Shown here: piece after piece, positions 4,343-20,549 of the stretch
How positions within the stretch are numbered: position 1 is the stretch's first letter
Layout of the letters: each line of letters starts with the position of its first letter
The notes under the pieces: generated by a model
What the model was told of the DNA's origin: nothing
Seen by the model: only the letters and a program-made list of their open reading frames with translations
The model's database searches: none
From: Candidatus Eiseniibacteriota bacterium
Lineage (GTDB): Bacteria; Eisenbacteria; RBG-16-71-46; JABDJR01; JAWXBZ01
DNA length: 28,926 bases
Reading direction: 5' to 3'
NCBI GenBank assembly: GCA_034440375.1
Contig: JAWXBZ010000058.1
Location: 1 to 28,926 of the forward strand
Made by a program: the position numbers and the translations under genes

Positions 4343-4459
4343 TTCTGGCGATACTCCGGCCCCCTCCGGGGAAGCGGCAACGGCCCGTCGTTTGGCCGCG
4401 AGACATTTAACGGGTAAAACGGCCATTGACTCCTTCCGCCCGGCGTCCCGCGTAGCCGG

Positions 4460-4472
4460 GTGACATTGTCAC
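4460..4472. promoter_or_regulatory. Perfect 6-1-6 palindrome GTGACA-T-TGTCAC, possible operator
   Basis: Seen directly in the intergenic region upstream of the methionine-synthase remnant. The binding factor is unknown. Confidence 0.3.
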
Positions 4473-4567
4473 TACTATTCTCTGGAACGCGCATTCAAAT
4501 TGGCTGGAGTAAACAACAATAGAGGCGAACCATGGAAAGCATTGTGAAGGCCCACGTGCCGGATCGC

Positions 4568-5046
4568 ATGACCATCCCGACCGAGCCAATCGGCAGTATT
4601 CCGAAAAGGGGCCCACAGCGTTCAAATCGATTTCACCGAGGGGCGGTTGGCGGTAAAGATCGATCCATCCGGGCACCTGCTTCACAGTTTCATCGACTTG
4701 AACAATCTGGCGCTGTCGCGCTTTTCCGCGGAGGACCGCAGACGGATCGGGGTGCACACCTGCCCGGGCGGTGACCGTGATTCGACCCACAGTGGCGATG
4801 TTGACTACGCCGAGCTGTTGCCGAGCCTGTTTGAACTGAATGCCGGGAACTTCTACATCGCACTGGCGGGGGAGAAAGATCCTGTCCGCGTCCTGAAGAT
4901 CATCCGCCAATACATGAGGTCGGACCGACGCGTGTTCGTCGGCGTGGTGGCACCGATCGATCCGCGTGTCGAGACACCGGGAGAAGTTCGAGACCGCACC
5001 CTCGAAGCTGCCAGGCACATTCCCGTCGAGCAACTTGGCACGACGG
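4568..5046 (+). pseudogene. Cobalamin-independent methionine synthase II-family (MetE C-domain-like) pseudogene
   Basis: The family N-terminus MTIPTEPIGSIP (4568) is joined out of frame to GAHSVQIDFTEGRL...IGVHTCPGGD...VETP.EVRDR...IPVEQLGTT. This implies a large internal deletion with frameshift. The expected following DDCGF (third Zn ligand) is missing, so the 3' end is truncated too. Confidence 0.8.
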
Positions 5047-5108
5047 CCGTCTACACCGGCTCTCCTGCACGGACTATGGGTGGTCGATCGACACCGCGTT
5101 GCTGACAA

Positions 5109-5867
5109 TTATCGGTCTGGTTCCATTTCCGACCTGGATTCGGTGACCTCACGCCTCCCCACGGCCCGCGGGAAGAGTATGTTGTTCTCCTTGTGGACAT
5201 GCCGGTGCATGTCGCGCTCCAGATCCGCCAGGCCGGATAGCAGGGCCTGGTGAGTCTGGCAGGCAGATGGCGACGGTGTGAAGTTGTCGGTCAGAACCCG
5301 CATCCGGGCCAGCGCCTCGCCGGCATGCTCATGTTCGGCTTCCATGACCCGGATGGGGCCGCTGACTCCCACGCTGCAACAGGCCGCGCGGTCGGCGGCT
5401 GGTTGGGTGCCCGCCTCGAGCGAGCGGATCAACGGAAAGAGGATTTCCTCTTCTTTCATCATGTGGCTTCCGATTTCGGCCGTGAACGACCTGAGTATTG
5501 TCTGCAATTCCAGCAGGCGCGGGTCACGCGGGCCGTGTTTCTCGGCCACCTTCTCCATCCGCCGCTGCAGGTGCGGCAGTTCATTCCTCAGGAACGTGTG
5601 ATGGGTTCGCTCGATTTGGTCACAGAGCGCCGTCATCGACAATCGCGACGGATCGGGCTCGGCGCCCACGCCCCCGGCATATTCCGCCTCGAGTTGGCTC
5701 ATGACCGTGTCGGCACTCACGCCCGACGATTCACAGGCCGTATCCAGACGCCGCCGGCCTCCACAGCAGTAGTCGATCCCGAGCGACTCGAAGATCCGGG
5801 CCCGCCCGGGTCGTTCCGTGACAAGTTGCCCCACAGTCTGTTCCATCCATTTCTGGGTCGTGTTCAT
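5109..5867 (-). CDS. ric: Iron-sulfur cluster repair di-iron protein (Ric/YtfE/DnrN/ScdA)
   Basis: GIDYCCGG N-domain, plus hemerythrin-like motifs HH.FLR.ELP, HMMKEE.ILFP, MEAEH and HVHKENNILFP. ATG at 5867 follows a GAGGAGG RBS. Confidence 0.93.
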   Translation of the reverse strand: MNTTQKWMEQTVGQLVTERPGRARIFESLGIDYCCGGRRRLDTACESSGVSADTVMSQLEAEYAGGVGAEPDPSRLSMTALCDQIERTHHTFLRNELPHLQRRMEKVAEKHGPRDPRLLELQTILRSFTAEIGSHMMKEEEILFPLIRSLEAGTQPAADRAACCSVGVSGPIRVMEAEHEHAGEALARMRVLTDNFTPSPSACQTHQALLSGLADLERDMHRHVHKENNILFPRAVGRREVTESRSEMEPDR

Positions 5868-5913
5868 CGTGACGCCTCCTCTGGGTGGCTCATTGACGGC
5901 CACCCGATTGTGA

Positions 5914-7236
5914 TCAGGTACTGATATCAAACCGGTGTTTCAGCTCCGGCGTGGCCGCATGCATTATTTTCCACACGACCAGATGGAGCCAGATCAGGCT
6001 GGTTGCGGTGACCAGAAGAAGAATGACGAACGTGGTCTGGGGGATATGGGTGAACTGGTAGGCGTACGCGAACAGCAGCGGCAGGAAGAAGCCGCCGAGC
6101 GCGCCCAGGAGACCTACCAGCCCGCCCACCGCACCGACATCCCGCGGGAAATATTCGGGAATGTACTTGTAGACCGCCGCCTTCCCGATCCCCATGCAGC
6201 ATCCGACGATGAAGATGAGCAGCGTGAAGAGTCCGGGAGACATGACGAAGCGCATCGTGTTCAGCTCGCCGCCGGCCGAAACTCTCTCGGGTACGTACAG
6301 GACGATGTGCCCGTTCGGCGCGGCCAGGAGCAGCAGTGCCGCGGTCATCCCCCCCAGGACCCAGTACATGATGCGCCGCGCGCCGATCCGATCGGACAGC
6401 CAGCCGCCCAGCGGCCGGAGCAGGCTGGCCGGAAAGATGAAGAGCGCGGTCAGCAGGGCCGCCTGGCCGAGCGGCAGGTGAAACACGTCCATGTAGTACT
6501 TCGGCAGCCAGACCGACAGGGCCACGTAGGCACCAAATACCACGACGTAGTAGAGACTGAATCGCCATACGCGCATCTGGCCGAGCGGACGGAGCAAATC
6601 ACGAAGCGGTCGACCCGCTCCGGGCTTGTGATCCTGGCGCGGCGTCAGGAGCCAGATGGCACAGGCCATGACCAGGCACGACACGCCGTAGAGAAACGGC
6701 ACGAATCGCCAGCCTCCTGGAATCCAACTGCCCAGGAATCCCGCCGCAGGCACCGCGACGATGAGCCACGGACCGATGAACTTGGTCACGGAGGCTCCGA
6801 CATTGCCAGCGCCGAAGACGCCAAGTGCGAACCCCTGCCGTTCGCGCGGAAACCAGGCGGAATTCCAGGCAATGCCCACCGAGAAGGCATTGCCGGCCAT
6901 GCCGACAAGAAACGCGCTGAACAGGAGCTGGTTGAAATCGCGGGCCTGGCTGACCATGAACGCGGGGATGGCCGTCAGGCCGACCAGCAGGGTCAGGACG
7001 AGGCGCCCGCCGAAGCGGTCGGTCCAGATGCCGAACAGGAGGCGCCAGATCGATCCATTCAGGATGGCCACCGCCGTGAGCCAACCGAACTGGACATCCG
7101 AAAGCCCGAACTCTTTTCGGATCGGAATGCCCAGCACGCCGAACATCAGCCAGACGGCGAACATCAGGGTGAAGGCCAGTGTGGAAACGGTCAGGATGAC
7201 GTTGCTGTGCGGTGTCGCGTCAGACCTTCCTAGCAT
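5914..7236 (-). CDS. narK: MFS nitrate/nitrite transporter (NarK1-like)
   Basis: 12-TM MFS pattern with nitrate-signature motifs FGAGNVGAS and GAVGGLVGLLGALGGF. ATG at 7236 has a GGAGG RBS and overlaps the upstream stop. Confidence 0.9.
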   Translation of the reverse strand: MLGRSDATPHSNVILTVSTLAFTLMFAVWLMFGVLGIPIRKEFGLSDVQFGWLTAVAILNGSIWRLLFGIWTDRFGGRLVLTLLVGLTAIPAFMVSQARDFNQLLFSAFLVGMAGNAFSVGIAWNSAWFPRERQGFALGVFGAGNVGASVTKFIGPWLIVAVPAAGFLGSWIPGGWRFVPFLYGVSCLVMACAIWLLTPRQDHKPGAGRPLRDLLRPLGQMRVWRFSLYYVVVFGAYVALSVWLPKYYMDVFHLPLGQAALLTALFIFPASLLRPLGGWLSDRIGARRIMYWVLGGMTAALLLLAAPNGHIVLYVPERVSAGGELNTMRFVMSPGLFTLLIFIVGCCMGIGKAAVYKYIPEYFPRDVGAVGGLVGLLGALGGFFLPLLFAYAYQFTHIPQTTFVILLLVTATSLIWLHLVVWKIMHAATPELKHRFDIST

Positions 7237-8597
7237 GGGGCCTCCGCGCGACGGCGATAGTAAAACCACCATGTGAGGCCAAGACAGCTGGCATAGAACG
7301 CCAGGAACCAGGCCAGGGCCGATTGTGGCGTCCCACTCTTGATGGCGTTACCAAAGGCGATGGGAATGATGAACCCGCCGTAAGCGCCAATGGCCGAACT
7401 AAAGCCAAGTATGGCGCTGGCCTCGAGAGTTCCAGCCCGCCGCGCGGCCTCCACCGACGTGCCGGCACGCTGCGCACGGCCCAGACTCTGATTCAGGAAG
7501 ATTACCGGGATCATCTTGAACGTGGAGGCATTCCCGACGCCGGCTGTCATGAAGAGCAGGAGAAAGAGGACCAGGAAGCCACCGAACTCCCGGGTGTTCA
7601 CGAAATGGATGACTCCCCCGGCGGCCCCCATCATGGCCAGAAAATTCCAGAACGTGACCCGGGCCCCACCCCATCGATCGGACATCCACCCGCCAACCGG
7701 GCGGGCCAGTGCGCCGACCAGTGGGCCCAGAAACGCGAACTGGAGGGGATCGACTCCGTCGAAGATCGACTTGATGAGCCGGGGAAACGCGGCCGAGTAG
7801 CCGATGAACGAACCGAAGGTGCCGAGGTAAAGCCAGCACATGATCCAGTTGTGTTTCCGCCGAAAGATGATCGCCTGATGGCGGAAAGAGGCCCGGGCCG
7901 TGTCCAGGTTGTTCATGCCGAACCAGGCCACCACGGTCACGACCAGGATCATCGGCACCCAGACCCATCCGGCGTTTTGAAGCCAGAGGCTTCGGGTTTG
8001 ACCCGACACCACGACTTGTTGCGGTGCGCCACCAATCGCAGAAAAGAGCGGCATGGCGATGGCGATCGGGACAAGAAATTGCATGAAGCTGACGCCCAGG
8101 TTTCCAAGGCCGGCATTCAGGCCAAGACCCATTCCCTTCCGGGCCGCCGGGAAAAACGGATTGATGTTGGCCATGCTCGATGCAAAGTTGGCGCCCCCGA
8201 ATCCGCACAGGAGGGCCAGCAGCACGAACGTTTCGTAGGATGTGGCGGGGTTCTGCACCGCCAGGCCGATGCCGACGGCCGGCACCAGGAGGGAGGCCGT
8301 GCTCAACACGGTCCAGTTGCGGCCCCCGAAGATCGGCACCATGAAGGAGTAGAGGATGCGCATCGTGGCTCCGGTCAGCGCCGGCAGCGCGGCCAGCCAG
8401 AACTCCTGTTGCTCGGTGAAATGGAATCCGATGGCCCGAAGCTTCACGACGATGACGCTCCAGACCATCCAGACCGAAAAGGCCAGCAAAAGGGCCGGAA
8501 TGGATATCCAGAGATTGCGATTGGCGATGCGCTCGCCGGTTTCGCTCCAGAAGGTCGGGTCTTCCGGGCGCCAGTCCTTGATACGGTGCGTTGTCAT
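7230..8597 (-). CDS. narK: MFS nitrate/nitrite transporter (NarK2/NarU-like)
   Basis: W.PED..FW...G..IA.RNLWISIP N-terminus; CGFGGANFASSM, GLNAGLGNLG, YLGTFGSFIGYS, GNASTFKMIP and SAIGAYGGF motifs. Confidence 0.95.
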   Translation of the reverse strand: MTTHRIKDWRPEDPTFWSETGERIANRNLWISIPALLLAFSVWMVWSVIVVKLRAIGFHFTEQQEFWLAALPALTGATMRILYSFMVPIFGGRNWTVLSTASLLVPAVGIGLAVQNPATSYETFVLLALLCGFGGANFASSMANINPFFPAARKGMGLGLNAGLGNLGVSFMQFLVPIAIAMPLFSAIGGAPQQVVVSGQTRSLWLQNAGWVWVPMILVVTVVAWFGMNNLDTARASFRHQAIIFRRKHNWIMCWLYLGTFGSFIGYSAAFPRLIKSIFDGVDPLQFAFLGPLVGALARPVGGWMSDRWGGARVTFWNFLAMMGAAGGVIHFVNTREFGGFLVLFLLLFMTAGVGNASTFKMIPVIFLNQSLGRAQRAGTSVEAARRAGTLEASAILGFSSAIGAYGGFIIPIAFGNAIKSGTPQSALAWFLAFYASCLGLTWWFYYRRRAEAPC

Positions 8598-9241
8598 CGA
8601 TCGTTCTCCCGGTCCGCGTTGTCACCGGTCGCCGAACCGGACGCGAATGCGAACCCATGCAGGAGGTGCTTGAGGCCGTACAGGCCCAGGATCGTGGCCA
8701 GAAGCGTCAGGATCAGTGACGTCCGGTTCTTCCAGAAGTTGTACTGAAACAGCTTCCAGGGGTCTCCATCGGTGTCGAGCAGGGGGTGTGTTCCTGCCCG
8801 ATACTCGTCGCGGTCAGTTATTCCGTCGTGGTCAAGATCGCTGTCGAAAGGGAGGGCCGAAGCCAGCTCCATGGGTACGAGGCGCAGCTCGAGGATTCGC
8901 TTCTTCCCCAATCGATTGAGCAGATGGTTTCCGAACGGATTAAGAATGGGGCTGGTCGCGTGATTGTCGGGCGACAGCGCCGCGCGGGCCTGCCCGAGCT
9001 GGGCCAGTTCGGCGGCGCTCAGGCGGCCGATCTGCCCCGGTGCCGTCCCCTCCGGCCCGTCGGCATGGGCATGACAGAAGGCACAGTTCACGGGCCGGGC
9101 GGTGGTCTTCAGAATGGAACGTTGAAACTCCGGATAGGCGGCCGCAGGCGGTGAATCCAGGGTGCACGCGCCCAGCAGCGCCGCGCACATGGTCACGATG
9201 CGGCAGAAACTCGTCGCGACATCCGACTGGCGTCGCATCAT
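8594..9241 (-). CDS. Membrane-anchored monoheme c-type cytochrome with a DxDxDG Ca-binding repeat
   Basis: Signal peptide (AAA|YPEF), one CAFCH, DSDLDHDGITDRDEY..GTHP, and a C-terminal TM helix. Translationally coupled at both ends. Confidence 0.75.
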   Translation of the reverse strand: MMRRQSDVATSFCRIVTMCAALLGACTLDSPPAAAYPEFQRSILKTTARPVNCAFCHAHADGPEGTAPGQIGRLSAAELAQLGQARAALSPDNHATSPILNPFGNHLLNRLGKKRILELRLVPMELASALPFDSDLDHDGITDRDEYRAGTHPLLDTDGDPWKLFQYNFWKNRTSLILTLLATILGLYGLKHLLHGFAFASGSATGDNADRENDR

Positions 9242-10341
9242 CTCCCCTTTACGAGGTGAACTATCGACTCACCGAAGAAGGTCATCAGGATGAGATAGAG
9301 TCCGCCCGCGAAGGCCAACAGGCGCAACGTCCGCCGGTTCGTGTCGCGGAAGATCCAGGGTGCTCCCGCCATCACCACGCCCAGAACCATCTGGGCCAGC
9401 ATCAGGACCCAGAGCGGGAGGATCTCCAGCGGGTAGTAGATCCAGAAGAAGTACCACTCCGGCTTGATGCCATCGGGAGTCGAACCTTGTGCGATGTAGG
9501 GTTCGAACAGCGGGTAGCTGAACAGCGCCTCGAACGGCAGGCAGAGCCCCAGTGTGAACAGCACCATGAAGGCCACGCCCCACACCTGGAGATCACGGAC
9601 GAAGAAAATCGGGAAGAATTTCTCGCGCCGGCGGGGCGGCTCATCGACGCCGCGGCTCATTCCGTGGAGCTGCACCGACAACAGGTGCAACCCCAGCATT
9701 ATCGCCATGGCAAACGGCAGGATGATGACGTGCAGCGCAAAGAAGCGGCTCAACGTGGCCTGTCCGACCGACGCTTCGCCCTGGATTGTCTCGCGGACCA
9801 GCCGGGGCCACGCTGACATTTCGCCCGGCAGATAGCGGCCAGCCTCCTCGATGGTCTGCAACCCAACCTTCGTGGCGTTGACCGCGATCTGGTGCCACGG
9901 GAGCAGGTACCCGGTGAAACCAAGCACCAGCGTCACGGCAAACAGGCCGAGGCCCGTCAACCAGGTAATCTCGCGCGGCTTCTCGAACGCCTTCATTCCG
10001 AATGTCGTCAGCAGGTGAATGAACACCGAGGCGATCATCATCGAGGAGGACCAGGAATGCATGTTTCGAACAAGACCACCGCCTGGCACATGGGCAGTCA
10101 GATGCTCCACGGAGGCGTGGGCATCACTCACCGTCGGCTGGTAATAAAAGAGCAGCATCAGGCCGGTGACCACCTGGACAAGAAAGAAGAAGAGCGCCAG
10201 CCCCCCCAGGTAATACGCCCAGGAGAGACGGTGCACCGGCACCTCCTTCTTCCGGACCATCGAGTCGAAATTCATCTTCTCGACGGGGAGACGCCCGGTC
10301 AGGAAGTTTCCAAGTTGCCGCAGCGAACCTGTTCGGCTCAT
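9238..10341 (-). CDS. Cytochrome b subunit of a Rieske/cytochrome bc complex (b and subunit IV in one chain)
   Basis: YYLGG, QVVTGLMLLFYY.P, RNMHSW...FIH, REITWLTG, FTGYLLPW, TLSRFFALH...GLH and Qo motif KPEWYF. All four heme-b His are present. Confidence 0.93.
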   Translation of the reverse strand: MSRTGSLRQLGNFLTGRLPVEKMNFDSMVRKKEVPVHRLSWAYYLGGLALFFFLVQVVTGLMLLFYYQPTVSDAHASVEHLTAHVPGGGLVRNMHSWSSSMMIASVFIHLLTTFGMKAFEKPREITWLTGLGLFAVTLVLGFTGYLLPWHQIAVNATKVGLQTIEEAGRYLPGEMSAWPRLVRETIQGEASVGQATLSRFFALHVIILPFAMAIMLGLHLLSVQLHGMSRGVDEPPRRREKFFPIFFVRDLQVWGVAFMVLFTLGLCLPFEALFSYPLFEPYIAQGSTPDGIKPEWYFFWIYYPLEILPLWVLMLAQMVLGVVMAGAPWIFRDTNRRTLRLLAFAGGLYLILMTFFGESIVHLVKGR

Positions 10342-10345
10342 GTCA

Positions 10346-11659
10346 TCACCCTCGATCCGCTGGTTTGGTCAGGAAGAGGGTGCAGCCCGCCAGTGGCATC
10401 GGATCACTCGCTCCCTGGATTGGTTGTCCCGGTTCCTTCCGGGCCATGATCGTCCCGGCCCCGTCCATCAGCGCCCACCCGATCTCGGGTAGCGGCACCG
10501 TGGCCGGCGCCCCGGCGTTCGGCTGGCCGGTTCGGACATCGAAATAGGAAATGTGGCAGGGACAGAGAATCCGTCCCTGGGCGTCGATCTCGCTGCCGAC
10601 CGTGCAGCCGAGATGCGTGCACTTGGCCGAGCGAACGATCGGCCATCCATCGGAACCCTTGAAGGCCAGGCCGGGAGCCATGTCGTAGTCGATAAAGTAG
10701 TGTCCCTTCACTTCCGACAAGTCAGCCTGGCGGGCCACCTGGATGAAAGTGCTCCTCCGCCGTTCCAGCTCGAGGGCCCGCTCCTCCGCCGACAGTTGAA
10801 GGCGGACCAGCTTCTTCTGCAGCAGCATGGCCTCCGCCTCGCCATCCGGTGCCGGCCCCTTGAAGAAGTTCACGGCCTTTTCCGACACGCCGATGGCCAG
10901 AAGGCCGGAGGCTCCGGCGATCCCGAGGCCTCCCTTCAGGAACTCGCGCCGGCTGTCCGCCCTCGCCCTGGCCAGCGCCGGCTGTTCGCCGCGCCGCATC
11001 GTGGTCCAGATGACCAGCTGCGGCGCCCGCCACAGATAGGAAAGCGGCAGCGCCAGCAGGTGAATCAGCCTGGTGAAGGGGAGCAGAAGAATGAGGAGCC
11101 ACGCGCCGATCAGGTGCAGCTTGAAAACCAGCGGCAGATCGGCGACCAGCGTCATGTCCGGATGAATCGTCAAGAGGCTCCAGAGATAAGGGACCGCCGT
11201 GCCCATCCCCCACGCCGCGCCGTAGCGGAGTTGAACGGCCGTGAGGAGTCCGACGGCGACCTGTGCCAGGAGCAGCCCCGCCACGACCAGATCCATCGTG
11301 GTGGTCACCGCCTGCACCCGCCCCGAAGTCACCCGCCGCACGATGAGGAGCGAAAGACCGACGAGCGATAGGACGGCGGCGGCCATCCCCACAATTTCGA
11401 TCGCGACGAGCGCACCGGGCACGGCCAGAATTGCCTTCCAGACGCCGGGAAGCAGAAAGGCCACGATGTGTCCCAGGAGAACGACAAAGATTCCGATGTG
11501 CCACGGTGCGGAGCCGAGCAACAACTGCCGGTGCTCGAGGAACTGGGAGGAACGGGCTGAGTAACTGAAGCGATGCGCCCGGAGGCGCCAGTAGCTGCCG
11601 ACAATTGCCGTGGTGATAGCCAGGTATGGCAGGCCGATGAGCAGGAAGGCGTCAAGCAC
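10346..11659 (-). CDS. narI: Respiratory nitrate reductase gamma subunit fused to a Tat-motif TM helix and a Rieske [2Fe-2S] domain
   Basis: Residues ~1-220 are NarI (SSQFLE, WH.G..VVLLGH, FKLH...LPFTRLIH; 4 heme His). SRREFLK lies at residue 236 (nt 10934-10954), followed by a hydrophobic helix. CTHLGC (10604-10621) and CPCHISYF (10541-10564) are in the same uninterrupted frame. Confidence 0.92.
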   Translation of the reverse strand: MLDAFLLIGLPYLAITTAIVGSYWRLRAHRFSYSARSSQFLEHRQLLLGSAPWHIGIFVVLLGHIVAFLLPGVWKAILAVPGALVAIEIVGMAAAVLSLVGLSLLIVRRVTSGRVQAVTTTMDLVVAGLLLAQVAVGLLTAVQLRYGAAWGMGTAVPYLWSLLTIHPDMTLVADLPLVFKLHLIGAWLLILLLPFTRLIHLLALPLSYLWRAPQLVIWTTMRRGEQPALARARADSRREFLKGGLGIAGASGLLAIGVSEKAVNFFKGPAPDGEAEAMLLQKKLVRLQLSAEERALELERRRSTFIQVARQADLSEVKGHYFIDYDMAPGLAFKGSDGWPIVRSAKCTHLGCTVGSEIDAQGRILCPCHISYFDVRTGQPNAGAPATVPLPEIGWALMDGAGTIMARKEPGQPIQGASDPMPLAGCTLFLTKPADRG

Positions 11660-12323
11660 GGCGCAGGTCCTTCCCGCCGGGAGCGGGGCATCCGCAGGCC
11701 CCGCCGGCGGGTGAACAGGACCCGACCGGGCGGGCCGCCGCAGCCAGCTCTGCGGCGGCGGCCGGGCCGGGATGGAGCTCCTGCAGCGTCGCCTGGATCG
11801 CGCCCACCAGGTCCCGGTAGGGATTGGTCTCCGGCAGGGACGCCATCATCCGCCCCACCGGCCCGAACAACACATGCTCGACCAGCTCGTGCCGTTCGTC
11901 CTCGTCGGCAGCCTCTCCCAGAAAGCGGAGCAGAACCGCCAGGTGATCGGGCAGTTCACCGCCGGTCGAGAAATCGATGGCGGCGAATCGGGCATTCAGC
12001 GCGGCCATGAAGGCGCCCCGCTTGAAGTTTTCCTCACCGAACAGATGGATGGTCACGTACGGAACGCATTGCCGCGACATGTCGAATGTGGCGGCATGAA
12101 GTTCCTCCCGCGAAGCGGACGTCCGGGCCACCATGGCCTTTGCGAATCGATCGAGATGGTGCCCGGCATCAGACAGCCCGGCTTCGTGTAGCGCCGCCCG
12201 TGCCGCCCCAAGCCGGCTGTCCCAATCGTCCGATGGGTACGCAAGGAGCGGCGCGAACGCCTCGTACCGCATGGCCGTCACCGTCACACCTGCCGGACCA
12301 GTCCTGTCGATTCGCGCGGTCAT
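11652..12323 (-). CDS. narJ: Nitrate reductase molybdenum cofactor assembly chaperone
   Basis: LLAYP, TFD, RGAFM..L and ELPDHLAVLLRFL motifs. Positioned between narH and narI. Confidence 0.88.
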   Translation of the reverse strand: MTARIDRTGPAGVTVTAMRYEAFAPLLAYPSDDWDSRLGAARAALHEAGLSDAGHHLDRFAKAMVARTSASREELHAATFDMSRQCVPYVTIHLFGEENFKRGAFMAALNARFAAIDFSTGGELPDHLAVLLRFLGEAADEDERHELVEHVLFGPVGRMMASLPETNPYRDLVGAIQATLQELHPGPAAAAELAAAARPVGSCSPAGGACGCPAPGGKDLRRA

Positions 12324-13828
12324 GAGGCCTCCCCCCCCTTCGAACCCTTGTTCACCGGGTAGTCGTCAAATCCGGCGCATCCTTTGCACACCTCCGGGCT
12401 GCAGGTCGACTCAATCGCCTCCTCCCGTTGCAAGGGAGGCAGCACGTAGCGCTGATACTGGGTCGGGATGGCCGTCATGCGATAGATGGCTTCCGCTTCG
12501 GCTGCCGTTGTGCTCGCCTCCCTCAGGATCCGATGGACATGATCGGCTGGAACATCCTTCACCGATTCAAGACGCTTCAGGTAGCGCACCGCCATCAGCT
12601 TCTTCAGGGAGGCCTCGACGACTTCTGTATTGCCGGCACTGAAGAGGCTGGCCAGGTATCGGATCGGCAATCGCGCCTCATTAAGCCCCGAGAAGAATTC
12701 CTCGCCGGCGTGCCCGTAGGTCCCCTCGCCGATTCGTCCCATGACCGGCAGCAGCGGCGGCACATAAAAGAGCATCGGCATCGTTCGATACTCGACATGA
12801 AGCGGCAGGGCCAGCTTCCACTCCATGACGTACTTCCAGACCGGTGAATTCCGCGCCGCATCCAGGAACTCGTCGCTGATCCCGTTACGTTTCGCCGCCG
12901 CCAGCACCACCGGGTCGTTCGGATCCAGGAGCACGCTTCGCTGTGAGTCGACCAGGGCCCGATCGGGCACCTGCATTGCCGCCGGTATCCGGTCGGCGTC
13001 GTACAGCAGGACGCCCAGGTAACGGATACGGCCGACGCAGGAGTGAAAGCAGGCCGGCGGCTGTCCCGTCTCCAACCGGGGGAAGCAGAGGATGCATTTC
13101 TCCGATTTTCCGGTCTTCCAGTTGTAGTAAATCTTCTTGTACGGACAGGCCGCCACGCAGGCCCGCCAGCCGCGGCACTTGTCCTGGTTGATCAGGACGA
13201 TGCCGTCCTCCCCCCGCTTGTAAATGGCTCCCGACGGACAGGCCGCCACGCAGCTCGGATTGGCGCAGTGATTGCAGATGCGAGGCAGGTAAAACATCGT
13301 CAGCCGCTCGACGTCGAAGAGCATCGCCCGCTCCTCGGAGGTCAGGGCGTCCAGATTGATGTCGTTAGCGGCATGAACCGGAGAGCCCGACAGATCATCG
13401 TCCCAGTTCGGGCCCGAGCGGATCTCCATCGGCTCGCCGGTGATCTGCGAGATGGAAATGGCCGTCGGCTGATCATCACCGGCCGGTGCTGTGAATAGAT
13501 CCTCGTACTTGTAGTTGAACGGTTCGTAATAGTCTTCCAGGGTCGGCTGATTCGGGTTATAGAACAGCTTCAGGAAGGCGTCCGCCCTGTTCTGACACCG
13601 CAACTCCAGCCTGCCGTTCGCCCCCATCTTCCAGCCGCCCTGGTATCGCTCCTGATCCTCCCAGCGATCCGGGTATCCGGTGCCTGGTTTTGTCTCGACG
13701 TTATTCCACCACATGTATTCCGCGCCGGGGCGGTCGGTCCATACGTTCTTGCAGGCAACACTGCAGGTATGGCACCCGATGCACTTGTCGAGATGAAAAA
13801 CCATGGCCACATGGGCGCGGACGTCCAT
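12320..13828 (-). CDS. narH: Respiratory nitrate reductase beta subunit
   Basis: LDKCIGCHTCSVACKNVW, LPRICNHC.NPSCVAACPSG, CRGWRAC...CPYKK ([3Fe-4S] Trp variant) and KSEKCILC...C..SC. Confidence 0.97.
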   Translation of the reverse strand: MDVRAHVAMVFHLDKCIGCHTCSVACKNVWTDRPGAEYMWWNNVETKPGTGYPDRWEDQERYQGGWKMGANGRLELRCQNRADAFLKLFYNPNQPTLEDYYEPFNYKYEDLFTAPAGDDQPTAISISQITGEPMEIRSGPNWDDDLSGSPVHAANDINLDALTSEERAMLFDVERLTMFYLPRICNHCANPSCVAACPSGAIYKRGEDGIVLINQDKCRGWRACVAACPYKKIYYNWKTGKSEKCILCFPRLETGQPPACFHSCVGRIRYLGVLLYDADRIPAAMQVPDRALVDSQRSVLLDPNDPVVLAAAKRNGISDEFLDAARNSPVWKYVMEWKLALPLHVEYRTMPMLFYVPPLLPVMGRIGEGTYGHAGEEFFSGLNEARLPIRYLASLFSAGNTEVVEASLKKLMAVRYLKRLESVKDVPADHVHRILREASTTAAEAEAIYRMTAIPTQYQRYVLPPLQREEAIESTCSPEVCKGCAGFDDYPVNKGSKGGEAS

Positions 13829-16800
13829 CAGAACACCACCTTCGAGAGTTTCTTCACGACGACGAAGGTGTCCCGATTCACGCCGGGAGGCCCCCAGTAA
13901 TTGAAGGCGTAGGTGAACTGCGCATAGCCACCAATCATGAACAGCGGCTTCAGCCGGGTCCGGGTCAGGCTGTTATGCCCGCCGGCGCGGCGGTTCCCGC
14001 GTTCGGGCGATTTTGGCACGCCGATCGTCCGTTCCGGCGCGTGGTACAGCAGGCAGATGCCTGCCGGAATGCGCGCGCTGACGATGACCCGCGTGGCCAC
14101 GACGCCGTGGTCGTTGAACGCCTCGACCCAGTCGTTGTCCACGATCCCGATGCGCTCGGCATCCCGGTCGTTGATCCAGATCGGATAACAGCCACGGGAC
14201 AGCGTCTTCATGCGCAGCGAGTCGCCGAAGGTCGAATGGATATGCCACTTGCCATGCGGCGTCAGGTAGTTGAGCACCAGGCACTCGCCGCTGGATGGCG
14301 TCTGCTCCAGATCGCGTGCCTGGCGCCGATCGGCCCGCGGTTTGAACGTCGGCAGGTGCTCGCCGTAGGCCCGGTACGCCTCGTGATCCAGGTAGAGATG
14401 CTGTCGGCCGGTTTGCGTACGCCAGGGGATCGATTCCTCGACGTTTTGGCAGAAGGCGGCATAGGTCCGCTTGCCGTTGGTGATGCCGGTCCAGAATGGC
14501 GATGTCAGCGTCCGGCGCGGCTGGGCCACCAGGTCATCGAACGTGTAACGGACGCCACGGCTGTCGGCGGCCAGGTGCGCGTGCGAAATCCCGGTCTTGA
14601 TCGACTCCGCGGCAAAGGCCCTGAAGGCCAGCTCGCCGTTGGTTTCGGGGGCGAAGTGCAGGATGACCTCGCAGACGTCCCGGTCATCGCGCAGGCTGGG
14701 ATACGTGCCGCCCCCCCATGTCCGGGTTGGGTGCGTCGTCCGATACGCATCGTACAGATCGTCCACATCGAAGTGAGTGCCGTGCATCGACAGGCCGTTG
14801 TTTCGAAAATTGGGCCCGAGTGATTCGAATCGGTTGAGAAGATTGGCGTAGTCCCGCTGGACGACCTTGATATTCGGCATCGTCTTCCCGGGAATAGCCG
14901 GACACTCCCCCTTGGCCCAGTCCCGGATGGTCAACTGGGCGAGCTCGGCCTTTGTGTCATGCAGAAGCGGCGTCACCACGATGTCCTTTACCGGCCCGTC
15001 AAAGTACTTTGGCGCCAGACGAGCGGTGGCGGCCGCGATGCCGCGGAAAATCTGCCAGTCGCTCTTCGATTCCCAGCAGGGGGGCACGGCGGCCTGCAGC
15101 GGATGGATGAAGCTGTGCAGGTCGGTCGAGTTGAGATCGTCCTTCTCGTAGTAGGTGGCGGCAGGCAGGACGATGTCGGAGTAGAGCGCGGAGGTGTCCA
15201 TTCGGAAGTTCAGGTCAACGACCAGATCCATCTTTCCGGTCTCGATCTTGTCACGCCAGGTGACATCACTGACCTCGCCTTTTGCCACCTCCTCGGCAAT
15301 GCAGTTGTGATGAGTGCCCAGGTAGTGCTTGAGGAAGTATTCGTGCCCCTTGGCCGAGGACATGAGCGCATTACCCCGCCAGATATAGAAGACGCGAGGG
15401 AAGCATTCGGGATCGTCCGGGTCCTCCATCGCGAACTTCAATGTCCGATCCGTCAACTGGCGAACCACGTGATCGACGATCTCCCCGTCTGTTCCGGCAC
15501 CGGCGGCCTCCGCCTCGCGCAAGACCTGAGAATTGCTCCGCGTGAACTGGGGATAGCAGGGGAGCCAGCCAAGCCTCACCGCCATGGCCTGCTTGTCGGC
15601 GGTATGCCCGCCGGCCATCGGATGTTCCGACTGATCGACCGGACAGATTTCCCCGAAGGCACGGTCGTATCGCCATTGGTCCGAGTGGATGTAGTGGAAG
15701 GAGGGGGCGTTTTGTTGCCGGGGCGGGCCGCCCCAGTCGGTTCCGAAAGCGATCGGCGCCCAGGAGGTCTGCGGCGTCAGTTTTTCCTGCCCGACGTAGT
15801 GGTTCCACCCCCCCCCGTTCTTGCCGACGCAACCGCAGAAGATGAGCGCGTTGATCACCGACCGGTAAATCAGGTTGTTGTGATACCAGTGGTTGACTCC
15901 GGCACCGATGATGACGCTGCAACGCCCCCCGGTCTGCTCGGCCGTGGTGGCCCACTGTCGGGCGAAGTTGATCGCCACGTCGGCAGCGACGCCGGTGAAT
16001 CGTTCCTGCCAGGCCGGTGTGAAGGGATGCGTGTCATCGTCATATCCGCCGGGCCACTCGCCGGGTAGTCCCCGGTCGATGCCGTACTGGGCGAAATAGA
16101 GTTCCATGACCGTTGTGATCGCCACCTCGCCATCGACCGTCCTGATCCGCCGGACAGGGACGTGGCGGACATGTGATTGCGTGTTCGTCCCCTTGGAAAA
16201 GTCGACAATTCGAATCGGCAGGGTCTCGGCGGTCGCTCCCTTGAGTTCGAGCTGCGGCCGGATGGGCCGACCATCAACGTCTTCGAGCTTCAGATTCCAC
16301 GCACCCTTGGACTCCTGCCAACGGTGCCCCACGGTCCCCTGGGGCATGACCGGTTCGTCGGTCGCTTCGTCCAGGACAAAGTACTTCCAGTCGGCGTTCT
16401 CAACCGTGCGCGTGGCCTCGAGGCGGCTGGCCCGCAGGAGTGGTCCGGGCCGATAGGTGCCGTCCGGCTGCGGGTCGAGCGTCACCAGGAAAGCCGCATC
16501 GGTGAACTTCTTCATGTAATCATGAAATTCGGGCACACAACGCCCGGCGTAGAACTCCTTCAGGATGACGTGACCGACCGCCATCCAGAAGGCCCCGTCG
16601 CTTCCCTGGTGCAGCGGAATCCATTCGTCGGCGATTTTCGAAGTCTGGCTGAAGTCCGGCGAGAAGACGACGACCTTGGCCCCGGCGTGGCGGGCCTCGA
16701 CCAGGAAATGCGCGTCGGGCGTCCGCGTCATGAGCACATTCGATCCGACCGTGGCGATGAATTTGGAGTGGTACCAGTCGGCGCTTTCGGCCACGTCCGT

Positions 16801-17457
16801 CTGCTCACCCCAGATCTCGGGAGAGGCGGGCGGCAGATCGCAATACCAGTCATAGAACGACAGCGACACGCCTCCCATCAATTGACAGAAGTGCGCGCCG
16901 GCGGCGTAGCTGATCATCGACATGGCCGGAATCGGCGAGAAACCGACGATGCGATCGGGTCCGTAACGGCGGATCGTATGGAGATTGGCCGCCGCCATGA
17001 TCTCGTTGACCTCGTCCCAGCCGGCCCGGCGCAGCCCCCCCTTGCCACGCGCCACCAGGTAGGACTTGCGCGCCGCCGGGTCGTCGACGATCGAAGCCCA
17101 GGCGGCAACCGGATCTTCCGGATGCTGCCGACGCGCCCGGCGCCACAGGTCCAGCAAAACGCCGCGGACATGGGGATACTTCACCCGCAGCGGGCTGTAG
17201 ATGTACCAGGAGTAGGAGATGCCACGCTGGCAGCCACGCGGTTCATAGGGCGGAATCTCGGTATCCAGAATCGGATAATCGAGTGCCTGCAGTTCCCACA
17301 CGACGATGCCGTTCTTGACGAAAATGTCCCAGCTGCACGAGCCGGTGCAGTTCACACCGTGCGTGCTGCGCACCTTGCGATCGTAGGACCAGCGATTCCG
17401 ATAGAAGGACTCCCAGGTCCGATCCTCCGGTGCAAAGACGTCCTTGATCCAGCCCAC
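13828..17457 (-). CDS. narG: Respiratory nitrate reductase alpha subunit (cytoplasmic type, no Tat signal)
   Basis: [15 protein letters not shown]...EPRGCQRG (FS0), [23 protein letters not shown] (Mo-Asp), [10 protein letters not shown] and FNYWGP.G.NRD. 1209 aa, GTG start. Confidence 0.97.
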
Positions 17458-17459
17458 GG

Positions 17460-18212
17460 TCAGCCCCTTCCCTTTTGATCCGCGCCGCGGCGCAACGGTC
17501 GGCGGCGGTCGTAGTAGAGGAATAGCCCGGCGAAGACGATTAACGCGCCACCGCCGCCCAGTGCGAGATGATTCGGCGCCGGTGCCCGTGGAGCCGCGGG
17601 ATCAAGCGTGGCGAAGTACGCGACCAGGTGCGCCGCTTCCTGGCGCGCGATCGGGTGCTGCCGGTAATGAGGCGCCATTACCGGGTAGGCCGCGTTTTCA
17701 ATGCCGGAGCGCAGCGGGGTTTCGCCCAGTCGGACGAAGGCATCCGTCAGGTCCGGCCCCAGGCTTCCCCCTCGGCCACCGGCTGCATGGCAGGCCACGC
17801 AGGCCAGGCCCCGCTTGTCGAGCACCTTTCGGCCGAAGAAGAGTTGTTCGCCGATGGCGGCGTTCGGCGGTGCCAGTTCCAAAGCGAACCGGGCCCGGAC
17901 TCGCTCTTCCTCCCGCTTGAAACGCACAAGGGCGTCCGTCGCCCGGAGGAAGGCCGACAGGCTGTCGAGGTCTTCGAGCCCCAGTGGTCCGACGTGCTTC
18001 TCCATTCGTCCGATCGCGGGCCTCAGGACCTCATTGGACCAGGCCGCCACATGCGTCAATGACGGACCGGTCAGACGGGTGCCGTCCAGGGTGTGGCAGC
18101 CGGCGCAACGGGTGAGGAAGGCGGCCGCCGTCGGGTCGAGCGACTGACACGAAGCCGGCCCGGCCTCGACAAGCGCTGAGAGGAGCGCAAGAATGGCGAG
18201 TGAGTGCCTCAA
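17460..18212 (-). CDS. Membrane-anchored diheme c-type cytochrome (NarC-like, as in Thermus narCGHJI)
   Basis: Signal peptide, CAGCH and CVACH, GPSL/GPDL loops, distal Met candidates, and a C-terminal TM. Directly upstream of narG. TTG start overlaps the rrf2 stop. Confidence 0.85.
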   Translation of the reverse strand: MRHSLAILALLSALVEAGPASCQSLDPTAAAFLTRCAGCHTLDGTRLTGPSLTHVAAWSNEVLRPAIGRMEKHVGPLGLEDLDSLSAFLRATDALVRFKREEERVRARFALELAPPNAAIGEQLFFGRKVLDKRGLACVACHAAGGRGGSLGPDLTDAFVRLGETPLRSGIENAAYPVMAPHYRQHPIARQEAAHLVAYFATLDPAAPRAPAPNHLALGGGGALIVFAGLFLYYDRRRPLRRGADQKGRG

Positions 18213-18694
18213 GGCCTCTCCCCCTTTCGGTTTTCCAACCGGACGGCCCGGGTTACTGGAGCGGTGAGGCAGCCGGGTTCAGGTGAAGCCGTTCCGGATC
18301 TCCCCGGCGTGGAGGCCATTTCGGCCAGTGTCCATCGGGACAGCGCCTCCAGAGTTGCATGGTGGACTTCACGCATGGCCCGGTGGAATCCGCAGGTCCG
18401 GCAACCCGGTGAACGGGGGCGGCAGTAGTCGCCGGTGACGGACCCCTGCAAGGCCTCCACTATCTCCAGAAGCCGGATCTCGGCCGCCGGCCGTGCCATG
18501 GTGACCCCACCTTTCGAGCCCTTGTGTGCCACGAGTACGCCGGCACGTACCAGCTGGCCGGTGACCTTGGAGAGGTAGCTTGCGGACAGTCCGAGAGCGC
18601 CGGCCATCGCCCGGGGCGAGGCCGGTTCGCGACGCCGGCGCATGGCCAGGTAGAGCAGAACCTGAACTCCGGTTTCCGTGGTCCTTGTCAGCAT
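18209..18694 (-). CDS. Rrf2-family transcriptional regulator (Fe-S-type)
   Basis: wHTH YLSKV..QLVRAG...G..GG..(M)ARP..EI.LLEIVEAL; C-x6-C-x2-C-x2-H plus a C-terminal Cys; AGGAG RBS. Confidence 0.9.
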   Translation of the reverse strand: MLTRTTETGVQVLLYLAMRRRREPASPRAMAGALGLSASYLSKVTGQLVRAGVLVAHKGSKGGVTMARPAAEIRLLEIVEALQGSVTGDYCRPRSPGCRTCGFHRAMREVHHATLEALSRWTLAEMASTPGRSGTASPEPGCLTAPVTRAVRLENRKGERP

Positions 18695-18715
18695 GCCCCG
18701 CTCCTGTATATAATC

Positions 18716-18742
18716 TAAATACGATAAAGCTTATCTCCTTTA
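18716..18742. promoter_or_regulatory. Imperfect 12-3-12 inverted repeat, putative Rrf2 operator
   Basis: TAAATACGATAA-AGC-TTATCTCCTTTA (9/12 paired, core GATAA/TTATC). Overlaps the -10 and the expected start site, in an AT-rich gap. Confidence 0.6.
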
Positions 18743-18767
18743 TACACAATAAGGATTAGTCAATCAA
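18739..18767 (-). promoter_or_regulatory. Sigma70-type promoter of the nar operon
   Basis: Minus strand TTGATT (18767-18762), 17 nt spacer, TATAAA (18744-18739). Confidence 0.6.
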
Positions 18768-18795
18768 GAGAAAAATGCAGGGAAAATGATGGAGG

Positions 18796-19263
18796 TCAGG
18801 CTCCGGTTTGAACCCGGTCTTTGAGGCAGCTCATCAGGCACCGGCCGGCCTTTTTTCCGACCCGGACGCCGATCGGCCGGGCGGCCAGATCGGCCAGCGT
18901 CCAGCGGGAGAGAACCTCCACCGTGGCCCGATGAACCTCGTGCATCGCCTCATGGAAAGCGCAGATGCTCGCCACGCCGGTGGTGTCCTCGCAATAGCGT
19001 CCGACGATACGCCCCTGGAGCGCCTCAACCACCTCGATCAGCCGGATCTTGCCCGCCGGCCGGCTGAGCGTGACACCGCCGCGGGCGCCCCGGTGGGCCC
19101 GAAGAATGTCGGCCCGGACGAGTTGGCCGGTCACCTTGCTCAGATAGCTGGGAGACATCCCGGTGGCTTCCGCGATGACCCGCGGTGACAGGGGCTCGCC
19201 GCCCTTCCCCAGGGCCAGGTAAACGAGGGCCTGAATGCCGGCTTCGGTGGTTTTGGTCAGCAT
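18796..19263 (-). CDS. Second Rrf2-family regulator (paralog of 18209-18694)
   Basis: MLTKTTEAGIQALVYLA...YLSKVTGQLVRA...RGARGGVTLSRP...YC-x9-C-x2-H. Start at 19263 was chosen by alignment to the paralog. Confidence 0.88.
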   Translation of the reverse strand: MLTKTTEAGIQALVYLALGKGGEPLSPRVIAEATGMSPSYLSKVTGQLVRADILRAHRGARGGVTLSRPAGKIRLIEVVEALQGRIVGRYCEDTTGVASICAFHEAMHEVHRATVEVLSRWTLADLAARPIGVRVGKKAGRCLMSCLKDRVQTGA

Positions 19264-19319
19264 GGAACGGAAGACTCGCACGGATGAGCTGTGGGGCTCA
19301 ACCCGGAGTGACAGGTTCA

Positions 19320-19483
19320 CTGCCGCATGGCCGGGCCCGATAAGGATCCGCTGTCCGAAGTGCCGCGGGGAGCACCTCCTGGCCTTCTCCTGCCGGACGC
19401 GCAACTTCTGCCCGAGCTGCCAGGCGAAACGGGCCGCCCTGGTGGCCGAGAGGTTACTGAGCGGGATCCTGGCGCCGGTGCCG
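19320..19483 (+). mobile_element. IS91-family (Y2, rolling-circle) transposase zinc-binding domain remnant
   Basis: RIRCPKCRGEHLLAFSCRTRNFCPSCQAKRAAL...ILAPVP matches the IS91 Zn-domain pattern (R.RC..C....LAFSC..R..CPSC). The upstream 'LPHG.AR' is in another frame. It is cut off at the start of the DAACS copy. Confidence 0.8.
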
Positions 19484-20195
19484 ACGCTTCCAGGGGGGCC
19501 TCGAGGGGCTGTATGACGTCACGATGACGCTGATCGGGATCGTCATCCAACTGGCCCCGATCGGCGTGGCGGCATTGCTCTTCACGCTGACCGCGCAGCT
19601 CGGCTGGGATGTCCTGGTGCTGCTCGGCCGATACGTCTTTGTCGTCGTGCTCGGCCTCGCCATCCACCAGTTCGTCGTCTACTCATTGACCGTGCGCCTT
19701 CTTGGCGGCATGAACCCGATCACGTTCTTCCGCGGCATCACCGAAGCGATGCTGACCGCGTTTTCCACCGCCTCCAGCAATGCCACACTTCCCACCTCGA
19801 TTCGCGTGGCCGAGGAGAAACTCCATCTCCCCCCGGCCATCAGCCGATTCGTCCTGACCATCGGATCGACCGCCAACCAGAACGGCACGGCGCTCTTCGA
19901 AGGGGTGACCGTCCTCTTTCTGGCCCAGTTCTACGGCGTCGAACTTGGCCTCGGCCAGCAGGCGCTGGTGGTCTTCATCTGCATTCTGGGCGGCATCGGC
20001 ACGGCCGGCGTCCCGGCCGGATCCCTGCCGGTCATCGCGCTCATCCTCGGCATGGTCCATGTCCCGGTCGAAGGAATCGGCATCATCCTCGCCGTCGACC
20101 GATTTCTCGACATGTGCCGGACAACGCTCAATGTGACCGGCGATCTGGCGGCAGCGGTGGTGGTTTCGCGCGGAGAGACCCGACCGGTGGAGTGA
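19482..20195 (+). pseudogene. 5'-truncated duplicate of the DAACS symporter (direct repeat copy 2)
   Basis: Matches 3629-4342 and lacks the first 184 codons. It begins abruptly at the IS91 remnant. Confidence 0.9.
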
Positions 20196-20198
20196 TCC

Positions 20199-20224
20199 GG
20201 GCGGTGCCTCGGCCCCCACCGCTC
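20199..20224. terminator. Possible terminator hairpin after the truncated DAACS copy
   Basis: GCGGTG...CACCGC stem just after the stop codon, without a clear U-tract. Confidence 0.25.
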
Positions 20225-20549
20225 AGTTAATACCCGTCGGCGGCAACCTGAATCGTGTGGCTGTCGAGAACGTGCTGAGTCGGCGATGCGGCTCCGGCGA
20301 TGTTCAGCGTCCACTCGGTTCTGTTTCCGGGTGTCGTTAGAATTTCGGCACGGATCGTCCCAGCCGGCGCATAAGGCTCCCCCCGCCAGATTTTCTCCTC
20401 GAACGTCATGTCGAGATGGAGACGGGCGCGCAGATCCCGGAGCGTCGGCGGAGCAGGACCGTGGAATCGGTGGGCAATTGCGGCGAAAAGACAAATTCCA
20501 CCCCGCCGGCCGGAACCGGCAACCGCCCGTTCGTGTTAGCGTAGCCCGC

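Follow-up and report, generated by a model that had tools for sequence, protein, structure and literature searches.

We describe here an operon in which the membrane anchor of a cytoplasm-facing nitrate reductase (Nar) and the Rieske iron–sulfur protein of a cytochrome bc module are encoded as one polypeptide, NarI::Rieske. The operon lies on the minus strand of a stretch of 28,926 nucleotides (nt), contig JAWXBZ010000058.1 of GenBank assembly GCA_034440375.1, from a Candidatus Eiseniibacteriota bacterium; we refer to this stretch, at its full length, as ‘the window’. Genes for a cytochrome b and a monohaem cytochrome c follow the fusion gene directly. The arrangement is not chance, because the same order is found in 11 loci of 10 other assemblies, all of them metagenome-assembled genomes (MAGs). 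A first-pass annotation of the window, made from its letters alone, had proposed that an inward-facing Nar and a Rieske/cytochrome b module are held together in one assembly, and had named conservation of the gene order beforehand as a check on this proposal. A physical tie between them exists, in the form of a gene fusion, and the order is conserved across the 11 loci. The individual parts, and the idea of an inward-facing Nar fed by a Q-cycle, were known already; what is new here is the covalent wiring, the dedicated bc module, the clade-wide loss of a quinol-site residue and a c subunit that carries no name. We found no description of a NarI–Rieske fusion, or of this operon, in the full-text literature covered, which leaves out most subscription journals.

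The observations leave room for a hard-wired Nar–bc supercomplex in which NarI would act as a wire only, fed through NarC and through a c-type cytochrome of undescribed fold, possibly with N-terminal haem ligation like that of cytochrome f. Such a complex would double the energy conserved per electron, and would be widespread among uncultured, nitrate-to-ammonium Verrucomicrobiota-like bacteria, where annotators would miss it, since databases give the fusion no other label than ‘NarI’. We consider this reading, as a whole, tenable but somewhat more doubtful than assured. The seven central genes, with the three parts of the fusion, are as follows.

17460..18212, minus strand: NarC, a membrane-anchored periplasmic dihaem cytochrome c with two CxxCH motifs, a signal peptide and a C-terminal hydrophobic helix (residues 216-234).
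13828..17457, minus strand: NarG, the catalytic subunit, with a molybdenum–bis(molybdopterin guanine dinucleotide) (Mo-bisMGD) cofactor, cytoplasmic type (TIGR01580, 1518.5 bits against a cut-off of 1084).
12320..13828, minus strand: NarH, the iron–sulfur subunit (TIGR01660, 633.1 bits against a cut-off of 524).
11652..12323, minus strand: NarJ, the assembly chaperone (PF02613, 30 bits against 22.2; TIGR00684, 56 bits, just below 59.35).
10346..11659, minus strand: the NarI::Rieske fusion, 437 amino acids (aa) (PF02665 at residues 4-218, PF00355 at residues 307-391).
11000..11659, minus strand: NarI domain of the fusion, a dihaem b membrane anchor, residues 1 to about 220 (TIGR00351, 130.9 bits against a cut-off of 105.55).
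10886..10954, minus strand: Rieske signal-anchor of the fusion, after NarI helix 5, made up of a helix of mild hydrophobicity (residues 236-258) and a twin-arginine motif inside the chain, SRREFLKG.
10487..10741, minus strand: Rieske [2Fe-2S] domain of the fusion, bc type, residues 307-391 (PF00355, 29.4 bits).
9238..10341, minus strand: cytochrome b, 367 aa, with a b6-like N-terminal half and a subunit-IV-like C-terminal half (PF00033, 135 bits; PF13631; PF00032) and a PEWY motif.
8594..9241, minus strand: a membrane-anchored monohaem cytochrome c, 215 aa, with one CAFCH motif.

The seven genes, spanning 8594-18212, lie where the first-pass annotation had placed them, and are as tightly coupled as it had reported: neighbours overlap or stand no more than 4 nt apart. 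A 2-nt gap separates narC from narG; narG and narH overlap by 1 nt, narH and narJ by 4 nt, and narJ and narI by 8 nt; a 4-nt gap lies between narI::Rieske and the cytochrome b gene, which in turn overlaps the cytochrome c gene by 4 nt. NarG, NarH and NarI all score above their curated equivalog cut-offs (TIGR01580, TIGR01660 and TIGR00351). The same annotation had held that NarG faces the cytoplasm, that NarI keeps all four of its haem histidines and that the cytochrome b carries a PEWY motif, and all three statements stand. The N-terminus of NarG bears the motif HGVNCTGSC and no twin-arginine translocation (Tat) signal. The missing signal and the two NarK-family genes of the operon are together the marks of a cytoplasmic active site.

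The fusion protein begins with NarI and continues through a short basic linker, the motif SRREFLKG, the Gly/Ala-rich helix (236-258) and a long helical spacer to the Rieske domain. Its NarI part aligns with Escherichia coli NarI across residues 3-216. The four haem histidines align with E. coli His56, His66, His187 and His205, and are kept in 119 of 119 fused relatives. In a smaller set of 40 aligned fused proteins they are invariant, and so are both residues of the twin-arginine pair (R237 and R238) and, within the Rieske domain, C347, H349, C352, C366, C368 and H369, the disulfide cysteines included. The Rieske boxes read CTHLGC and CPCH, and the best solved matches to the domain are the Rieske proteins of Thermus and of bc1 complexes. 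One distant fused relative also matches PF10399, the family of Rieske Tat signals.

A Rieske domain must sit on the outer face of the membrane. E. coli NarI (PDB 1Q16) has its N-terminus outside and its C-terminus in the cytoplasm, so that the twin-arginine helix is rightly placed to return the chain to the outer face; we infer that it carries the Rieske domain there. The actinobacterial polytopic Rieske proteins (QcrA/Sco2149) are built similarly, with an internal twin-arginine motif before the last helix and the folded Rieske domain outward, and they need Sec and Tat together for insertion. In those proteins, however, the preceding helices are the Rieske protein's own, whereas in the window they are the five helices of another enzyme's haem-binding anchor.

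The fusion, and the genes around it, recur well beyond the window. Nine of the 10 MAGs with fusion loci are labelled as Verrucomicrobiota or a subgroup thereof, and the tenth as Melainabacteria. In every locus that reaches far enough, narC lies 5' of narG (7 of 7) and genes for cytochrome b and the monohaem c lie 3' of the fusion (9 of 9); narK follows the bc module in eight of nine nar loci. A word-indexed protein search with the fusion returned 543 hits, of which we examined the best 120 (57-100% identity, 422-441 aa); both PF02665 and PF00355 are present in all of these 120. At least 120 protein clusters therefore carry the NarI::Rieske fusion, and where they are named at all it is only as ‘nitrate reductase gamma subunit’. 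Among 206 sampled genomes of the window's own phylum, four have NarI above the cut-off, and in three of the four the open frame is at least 440 aa long, consistent with a fusion.

An exhaustive search of representatives clustered at 50% identity gave 64 hits at E ≤1e-30. Among the 150 matches listed, seven are fused NarI::Rieske proteins by motif, five of them also by Pfam. Three of these representatives fall outside the window's clade (see below), and the fusion may therefore have more than one origin. NarI or Rieske domains are also naturally joined to c-type cytochromes, as cyt c::NarI (P0355 and P0369), NarI::c7 (P0444) and cyt c::Rieske (P0333), and we count these joins in favour of the wiring proposed here. 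Further natural fusions link NarI to a major facilitator superfamily (MFS) transporter or to a SLAC1-type anion channel (P0364 and P0410). Stand-alone Rieske homologues, too, occur among the matches listed.

A second line of evidence comes from the quinol site of NarI. In the E. coli protein this site lies near haem bD and includes Lys86; Bertero reportedly described quinol binding with this residue in 2005. Chains of the K86A variant (1y5i and 1y5n) are among the solved-structure matches of the NarI part of the fusion. The window has Ala83 in the Lys86 column. Of 119 fused relatives not one has Lys, Arg or His there (Ala in 69, Val in 27, Ile in 8, Met in 8, Leu in 4, Thr in 2 and Gly in 1), whereas canonical, unfused NarI proteins have Lys in 31 of 34 cases, and close unfused ones have Arg in 25 of 33; Thermus NarI also has Arg. 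In a FastTree tree of 88 NarI domains the window belongs to a clade of 12 leaves (local support 0.80) that takes in four fused representatives out of the seven; the remaining three stand elsewhere in the tree. Within this clade the column is basic in none of the 12 leaves, against 50 of the 76 outside it. Since no basic residue occurs in the 119 fused relatives, NarI looks here like a wire and not like a second quinol oxidase, and comparison of the sequences argues that NarI in this clade no longer oxidises quinol. The first-pass annotation had envisaged two quinol-oxidising sites in one assembly; the absence of the basic residue from all 119 relatives speaks against that arrangement.

Quinol oxidation would then probably fall to the bc module. 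The best solved matches to its cytochrome b are cytochromes b6 (E 1.7e-43), and H95, H109, H204 and H219, together with P294-E-W-Y297, are invariant in 10 of 10 orthologues. The spacing in helix D is that of cytochrome b6; a Tyr occupies the aligned position of the b6 Cys, the residue that binds haem ci. The genome encodes another cytochrome b, on a different contig, beside an ordinary Rieske gene of 173 aa, and the cytochrome b and Rieske domain of the operon are only 32% and 34% identical to this other pair. The nar-linked bc module looks dedicated to its operon.

The monohaem cytochrome c is the least familiar part of the module. It matches no Pfam or NCBIfam family, and comparison with solved chains, by single sequence and by profile, gave nothing below E 0.05. 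We found 274 relatives, all of them unnamed or ‘hypothetical’. The predicted mature protein starts YPEFQ, immediately after an Ala-x-Ala-type cleavage site, and its single CxxCH follows 16 residues later. This arrangement recalls cytochrome f, which ligates its haem through the N-terminal amino group; no cytochrome f was listed in the profile search of solved chains. Across the family, the soluble part has no conserved Met and no second conserved His; the family has a DxDxDG motif resembling a calcium loop, and a C-terminal anchor whose helix carries, close to its end, a His that hardly varies. A lipobox (LGAC) in the signal peptide was considered and rejected, as it is not conserved in the relatives.

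Structural comparison was made with two models. That of the mature protein (predicted local distance difference test (pLDDT) 88) gave a best E of 4.3 with Foldseek against the PDB, and a best Z of 4.8 in a wide VIA search, on the C-terminal helix only; that of the soluble domain (pLDDT 80, falling to 60-66 over the haem-binding first 30 residues) gave a best Foldseek E of 2.7 and a best VIA Z of 2.3. No known fold was matched, but the models are without haem, and hence the novelty of the fold is not shown. In the ESM Atlas the protein belongs to its own unnamed cluster (280 members, mostly Verrucomicrobiota), with a weak lead to Temptin_C (score 0.90). Prediction of a complex of NarI::Rieske, cytochrome b and, as the partner, the mature monohaem c scored 0.69 with the genuine partner, and 0.00 and 0.00 with replaced partners; with chain 1 replaced it still scored 0.55, so this score is not specific to chain 1 and tells neither in favour of binding nor against it.

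The remaining haems on the outer face are those of NarC. Over 209 residues the window's NarC shares 31% identity with that of Thermus thermophilus (E 2e-16), the alignment bringing the two haem motifs of each into register, and in a tblastn search of a plasmid collection its only matches were 13 Thermus plasmids. In T. thermophilus SG0.5JP17-16 a narC homologue heads the series narG, narH, narJ, unfused narI and transporter gene, and lies immediately 5' of narG. Thermus NarC is known as a fourth subunit, and interacts with NarI in two-hybrid assays (PMC7694296). The Thermus enzyme (NarCGHI, encoded in the narCGHJIK/T operon of the nitrate-respiration element) is thus like that of the window in having a dihaem, membrane-anchored NarC encoded upstream of narG, an inward NarG and a downstream transporter. 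Its NarI, however, is unfused, 229 aa long, and has Arg in the quinol-site column, where the window has a fused NarI and Ala; and its operon has no gene for a Rieske protein, a cytochrome b or a monohaem c, whereas the window's has all three. 

We propose that these proteins form one membrane assembly, in which inward-facing NarGH would sit on NarI and be tied covalently, through NarI::Rieske, to a dedicated quinol oxidase of the Rieske/cytochrome b6-like kind. Menaquinol would be oxidised solely at the Qo site of cytochrome b. One electron would pass by way of haems bL and bH to the Qi site, in a Q-cycle, and the other, staying on the outer face, from the Rieske cluster to the monohaem c and on to the two NarC haems. 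The latter electron would then enter NarI at the distal haem, cross the membrane through the two NarI haems, and continue to NarH and finally to NarG, where nitrate would be reduced with cytoplasmic protons. NarI would serve as a transmembrane wire, not as a quinol oxidase, and every 2 electrons would yield 4 charges, as against 2 for canonical NarGHI. The core of this mechanism, namely that the bc Qo site is the sole place of menaquinol oxidation and that the haems first of the c cytochromes and then of NarI conduct the electrons to NarGH, with 4 and not 2 charges moved per electron pair, seems to us evenly poised between right and wrong. Of the two options in the first-pass annotation this keeps the Q-cycle route into NarI, which is the one favoured, and drops its two quinol sites. 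Which way the electrons run, in what order they visit the c haems and how many protons are gained are what we infer from the genes. The quinone is likely to be menaquinone, since genes of the futalosine pathway are present (three matches to PF02621); a search for MenA found none.

A Q-cycle feeding into NarI was already proposed in 2021, for Nar1 of Streptomyces (PMC7931247). According to that work Nar1 depends on, and co-purifies with, the bcc complex, and Falke et al. envisage electrons passing from a dihaem c to NarI haems bD and bP, across a potential difference of about 505 mV, with 4 H+ gained instead of 2 (PMC7931247). The Nar1/bcc–aa3 supercomplex of Streptomyces coelicolor is like the window's system in pairing inward NarGHI with a Rieske/cytochrome b complex; QcrA and QcrB co-purify with the Streptomyces enzyme. 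It differs in that its genes are unlinked and unfused, and its association non-covalent and possibly transient, where the window has a single polypeptide; and in that the bcc complex is a housekeeping one, shared with the aa3 oxidase, where the window's bc module is a separate paralogue.

Several points weigh against the wired reading. Sequence does not tell which way electrons flow, and their transfer to NarI haem bD from the c haems could be uphill. The bc module is not confined to nar operons: four metagenome loci, and a fifth that ends inside the cytochrome b, hold homologous trios (Rieske protein 45%, cytochrome b 58% and monohaem c 43% identical) that have no nar gene within 6 kb. The monohaem c gene again lies 3' of cytochrome b in the four complete modules. 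Because such trios exist, the monohaem c must be regarded as the bc module's own c subunit and not as specific to Nar, and the module can serve other acceptors. The loss of the basic residue, too, is not automatic with fusion. Two of the seven distant fused representatives (P0346 and P0366) keep Arg, as do all three NarI proteins fused to c cytochromes, and since Arg is kept in some fusions outside the clade, the loss is a property of this clade and not of every fusion. In two of 40 fused sequences an Arg occurs one position later. Equivalence with Lys86 depends, moreover, on the uncertain alignment of a loop: the columns coincide in two alignments and in a profile alignment, and are gapped apart in a third MAFFT run, which sets the E. 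coli-type loop apart from the shorter one by a gap. No paper on the Lys86 site turned up in the full-text literature covered. Finally, in Thermus, the only NarC system that has been studied, the role proposed for NarC is to take electrons from NarI outward (PMC7694296).

Among these stand-alone modules are those at L022:3815-8356, L026 and L028, none with nar genes within 6 kb; ahead of the first lie genes for two small CxxCH proteins and for a protein of 466 aa whose end resembles that of an outer-membrane barrel.

The behaviour of Thermus suggests a different arrangement, which we think rather unlikely: a branch point, in which NarI would still oxidise menaquinol, at a modified site, and the bc module and c cytochromes would feed electrons outward to cytochrome c oxidase, NosZ or NirK, or in which the assembly would switch between the two routes according to nitrate supply. 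Thermus cells without NarC fail to grow on nitrite or nitric oxide (NO) when complex III is repressed (PMC7694296), and the stand-alone bc modules and the Arg of two of the seven distant fusions fit this alternative as well. The other redox partners present in operon-bearing genomes bear on it directly. Twelve genomes carry the operon, though these are incomplete MAGs, and related genomes among them are not independent samples. A second cytochrome b is found in seven of the 12, so that the operon's is the only one in five, as a branch point might lead one to expect. But ActD, a subunit of alternative complex III (ACIII), occurs in nine of the 12, including all five that have no second cytochrome b, and all 12 therefore possess another quinol:cytochrome c route.

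Outward acceptors are scarce in the same genomes. Full-length NirS occurs in none of the 12 (the best match, of 33 bits, covers 130 of 368 positions), and NirK and NosZ exceed their cut-offs in one genome each, which is the little that a branch point could draw on. Strong NrfA, in contrast, is present in eight of the 12. The window's own genome (93.7% complete) encodes two A-type cytochrome c oxidases and nrfH beside nrfA, and neither NirS nor NirK was found in it. The first-pass annotation had suggested, as its other option, that the bc branch feeds periplasmic nitrite, NO and N2O reductases; this fits poorly with such an inventory, in which the prevalent nitrite reductase, NrfA, has here its own NrfH. 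The branch point is further disfavoured by the lack of a basic quinol-site residue in all 119 fused relatives, and by the position of the bc module within the nar operon, between narJ/narI and narK. On contig C25 of the window's genome the gene for ActD (C25:18928-19434) lies near a pair of genes for a caa3-type oxidase (approximately 12900-15540); this cluster looks like an ACIII–oxidase unit for aerobic respiration, independent of either bc module.

Two further explanations were weighed. In the first, which we judge distinctly improbable, the fusion and NarC would act as a scaffold, for assembly, stability or co-localisation, with the two enzymes working independently and no direct transfer of electrons between them. 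Thermus NarC is needed for the maturation of NarG and its attachment to the membrane (PMC7694296), and stabilisation is listed as an alternative by the authors of the Streptomyces work (PMC7931247). A scaffold leaves unexplained, however, why the basic quinol-site residue has been lost in 119 of 119 fused relatives, and why none of the loci long enough to show them has dispensed with the pair of membrane-anchored c cytochromes; fusions of this kind also seem to have arisen more than once, judging from the three fused representatives outside the main clade.

In the second, the system would run in reverse, oxidising nitrite in the manner of the inward-facing nitrite oxidoreductase (NXR) of Nitrobacter: electrons would exit through the NarI haems and NarC, and the bc module would work backwards to reduce quinone. 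We regard this as very improbable indeed. In its favour, NarG-type enzymes and NXR are indistinguishable by the models used, and the Nitrobacter nxr cluster has been described as very similar to the narC cluster of Thermus, its electrons leaving through homologues of NarI and NarC (PMC7694296). But the operon contains two transporters of the NarK family, two NsrR-like regulators and a RIC repair protein, and nitrite-consuming NrfA is present in eight of the 12 operon genomes. Nor, to our knowledge, is any nitrite oxidiser known in this lineage.

Other systems resemble the proposed wired assembly in part. Haloarchaeal Nar shares with the window the clustering of Rieske and cytochrome b genes with narG and narH, in the order Rieske, cytochrome b, hypothetical, narG, narH, and a Q-cycle has been proposed to feed its nitrate reduction; the enzyme is outward-facing and without NarI, a b-type cytochrome forming the link to NarH (PMC3509893). 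The contrast that the first-pass annotation had drawn with this enzyme was correct: NarG in the window has no Tat signal, and NarI is present with its four haem histidines, as are genes for NarK transporters. In E. coli NarGHI (PDB 1Q16) it is NarI itself that oxidises quinol, and the operon lacks genes for NarC, for a Rieske protein and for cytochromes b and c, where the window has all of these. Thermogutta terrifontis (Planctomycetota) has genes for complex III beside narGHI, and a role for them in nitrate respiration has been suggested, in no more than a remark on the annotation of the genome; the genes are unfused, and no NarC was found there (PMC5673643). In Campylobacter, Nap and Tor are reported to be fed by Qcr (PMC6195509). 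None of the Thermus, Streptomyces, haloarchaeal, Thermogutta or Campylobacter systems has the fusion.

Textbook NarGHI moves 2 charges per electron pair, and the donation of electrons to it bypasses the bc complex (PMC3509893). An inward-facing Nar coupled to a Q-cycle would double that yield. Evidence for such coupling has so far been indirect, and comes from Streptomyces spores (PMC7931247). No genetic argument for it is stronger than a single-polypeptide link that at least 120 protein clusters share, and this link gives structural and biochemical work a defined target. If the wired reading is true, the growth yields on nitrate of these abundant bacteria of soils, sediments and mats would be underestimated. 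The operon travels mainly with NrfA (8 of 12 genomes), which retains nitrogen as ammonium, and is for this reason relevant to models of the nitrogen cycle. In current annotation the c subunit is a ‘hypothetical protein’, and the fusion goes by the name ‘nitrate reductase gamma subunit’.

The operon extends further than the seven central genes. The first-pass annotation had these genes right, but the unit is longer at both ends and occupies 5109-18694 on the minus strand. The additional genes, together with a regulator gene beyond the head of the unit, are as follows.

18796..19404, minus strand: a regulator of the Rrf2 family (NsrR/IscR-like) (PF02082, 99.9 bits; TIGR00738, 87.5 bits), longest open reading frame (ORF) 202 aa.
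18209..18694, minus strand: a second Rrf2-family regulator (PF02082, 91.7 bits), overlapping the start of narC by 4 nt.
7230..8597, minus strand: a NarK2/NarU-like nitrate/nitrite transporter (TIGR00886, 322.6 bits against a cut-off of 311.7; NF011608, 491 bits).
5914..7272, minus strand: a second NarK-family MFS transporter (TIGR00886, 208 bits, below the cut-off; PF07690, 159.6 bits).
5109..5930, minus strand: a RIC/YtfE di-iron protein for the repair of iron–sulfur clusters (TIGR03652, 229.6 bits against a cut-off of 204.7).

The start of the transporter gene at 7230..8597 overlaps the stop of the monohaem c gene by 4 nt. At the other end, the Rrf2-family gene at 18209..18694 is probably the first of the operon. 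In its neighbour at 18796..19404 the Rrf2 domain begins only at residue 49, and the true start of that gene therefore probably lies downstream. A tandem pair of Rrf2-family (NsrR/IscR-like) genes thus stands at the head of the operon, and a RIC gene at its tail, which suggests control by nitric oxide or by iron–sulfur status. A scan of 4000-19800 for promoters and terminators found two promoter-like sites, where 2.4 were expected, and none on the coding strand. The DNA datasets listed as containing the sequence are microbial-mat and sediment metagenomes; no RNA dataset is listed.

The nar block is bracketed by a direct repeat of 740 nt, at 3629-4368 and 19482-20221, the two copies being 93.6% identical as DNA and 98.7% as protein. 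The first copy is the 3' part of an intact gene for an SDF dicarboxylate symporter (3077-4342), and the second is a 5'-truncated copy of this gene (ORF 19524-20195). At the right junction, on the plus strand, lies the remnant of an IS91-type transposase zinc-binding domain (19235-19516; PF14319, E 3.3e-9). The repeat and the remnant indicate that the block, of some 15 kb, may have been acquired or rearranged as a unit; in this it recalls the mobile nitrate-respiration element of Thermus. Adjoining the truncated symporter copy, on the plus strand at 20286-21017, is an ORF with an AbiEii-type nucleotidyltransferase domain, the toxin of type IV toxin–antitoxin systems (PF08843, E 2.6e-7). Further on, also on the plus strand, are two tandem paralogues with GHL15 glycosyl-hydrolase-like and fibronectin type III domains: one of 1197 aa (22693-26286), and one of at least 796 aa (26537-28924) that runs off the end of the window.

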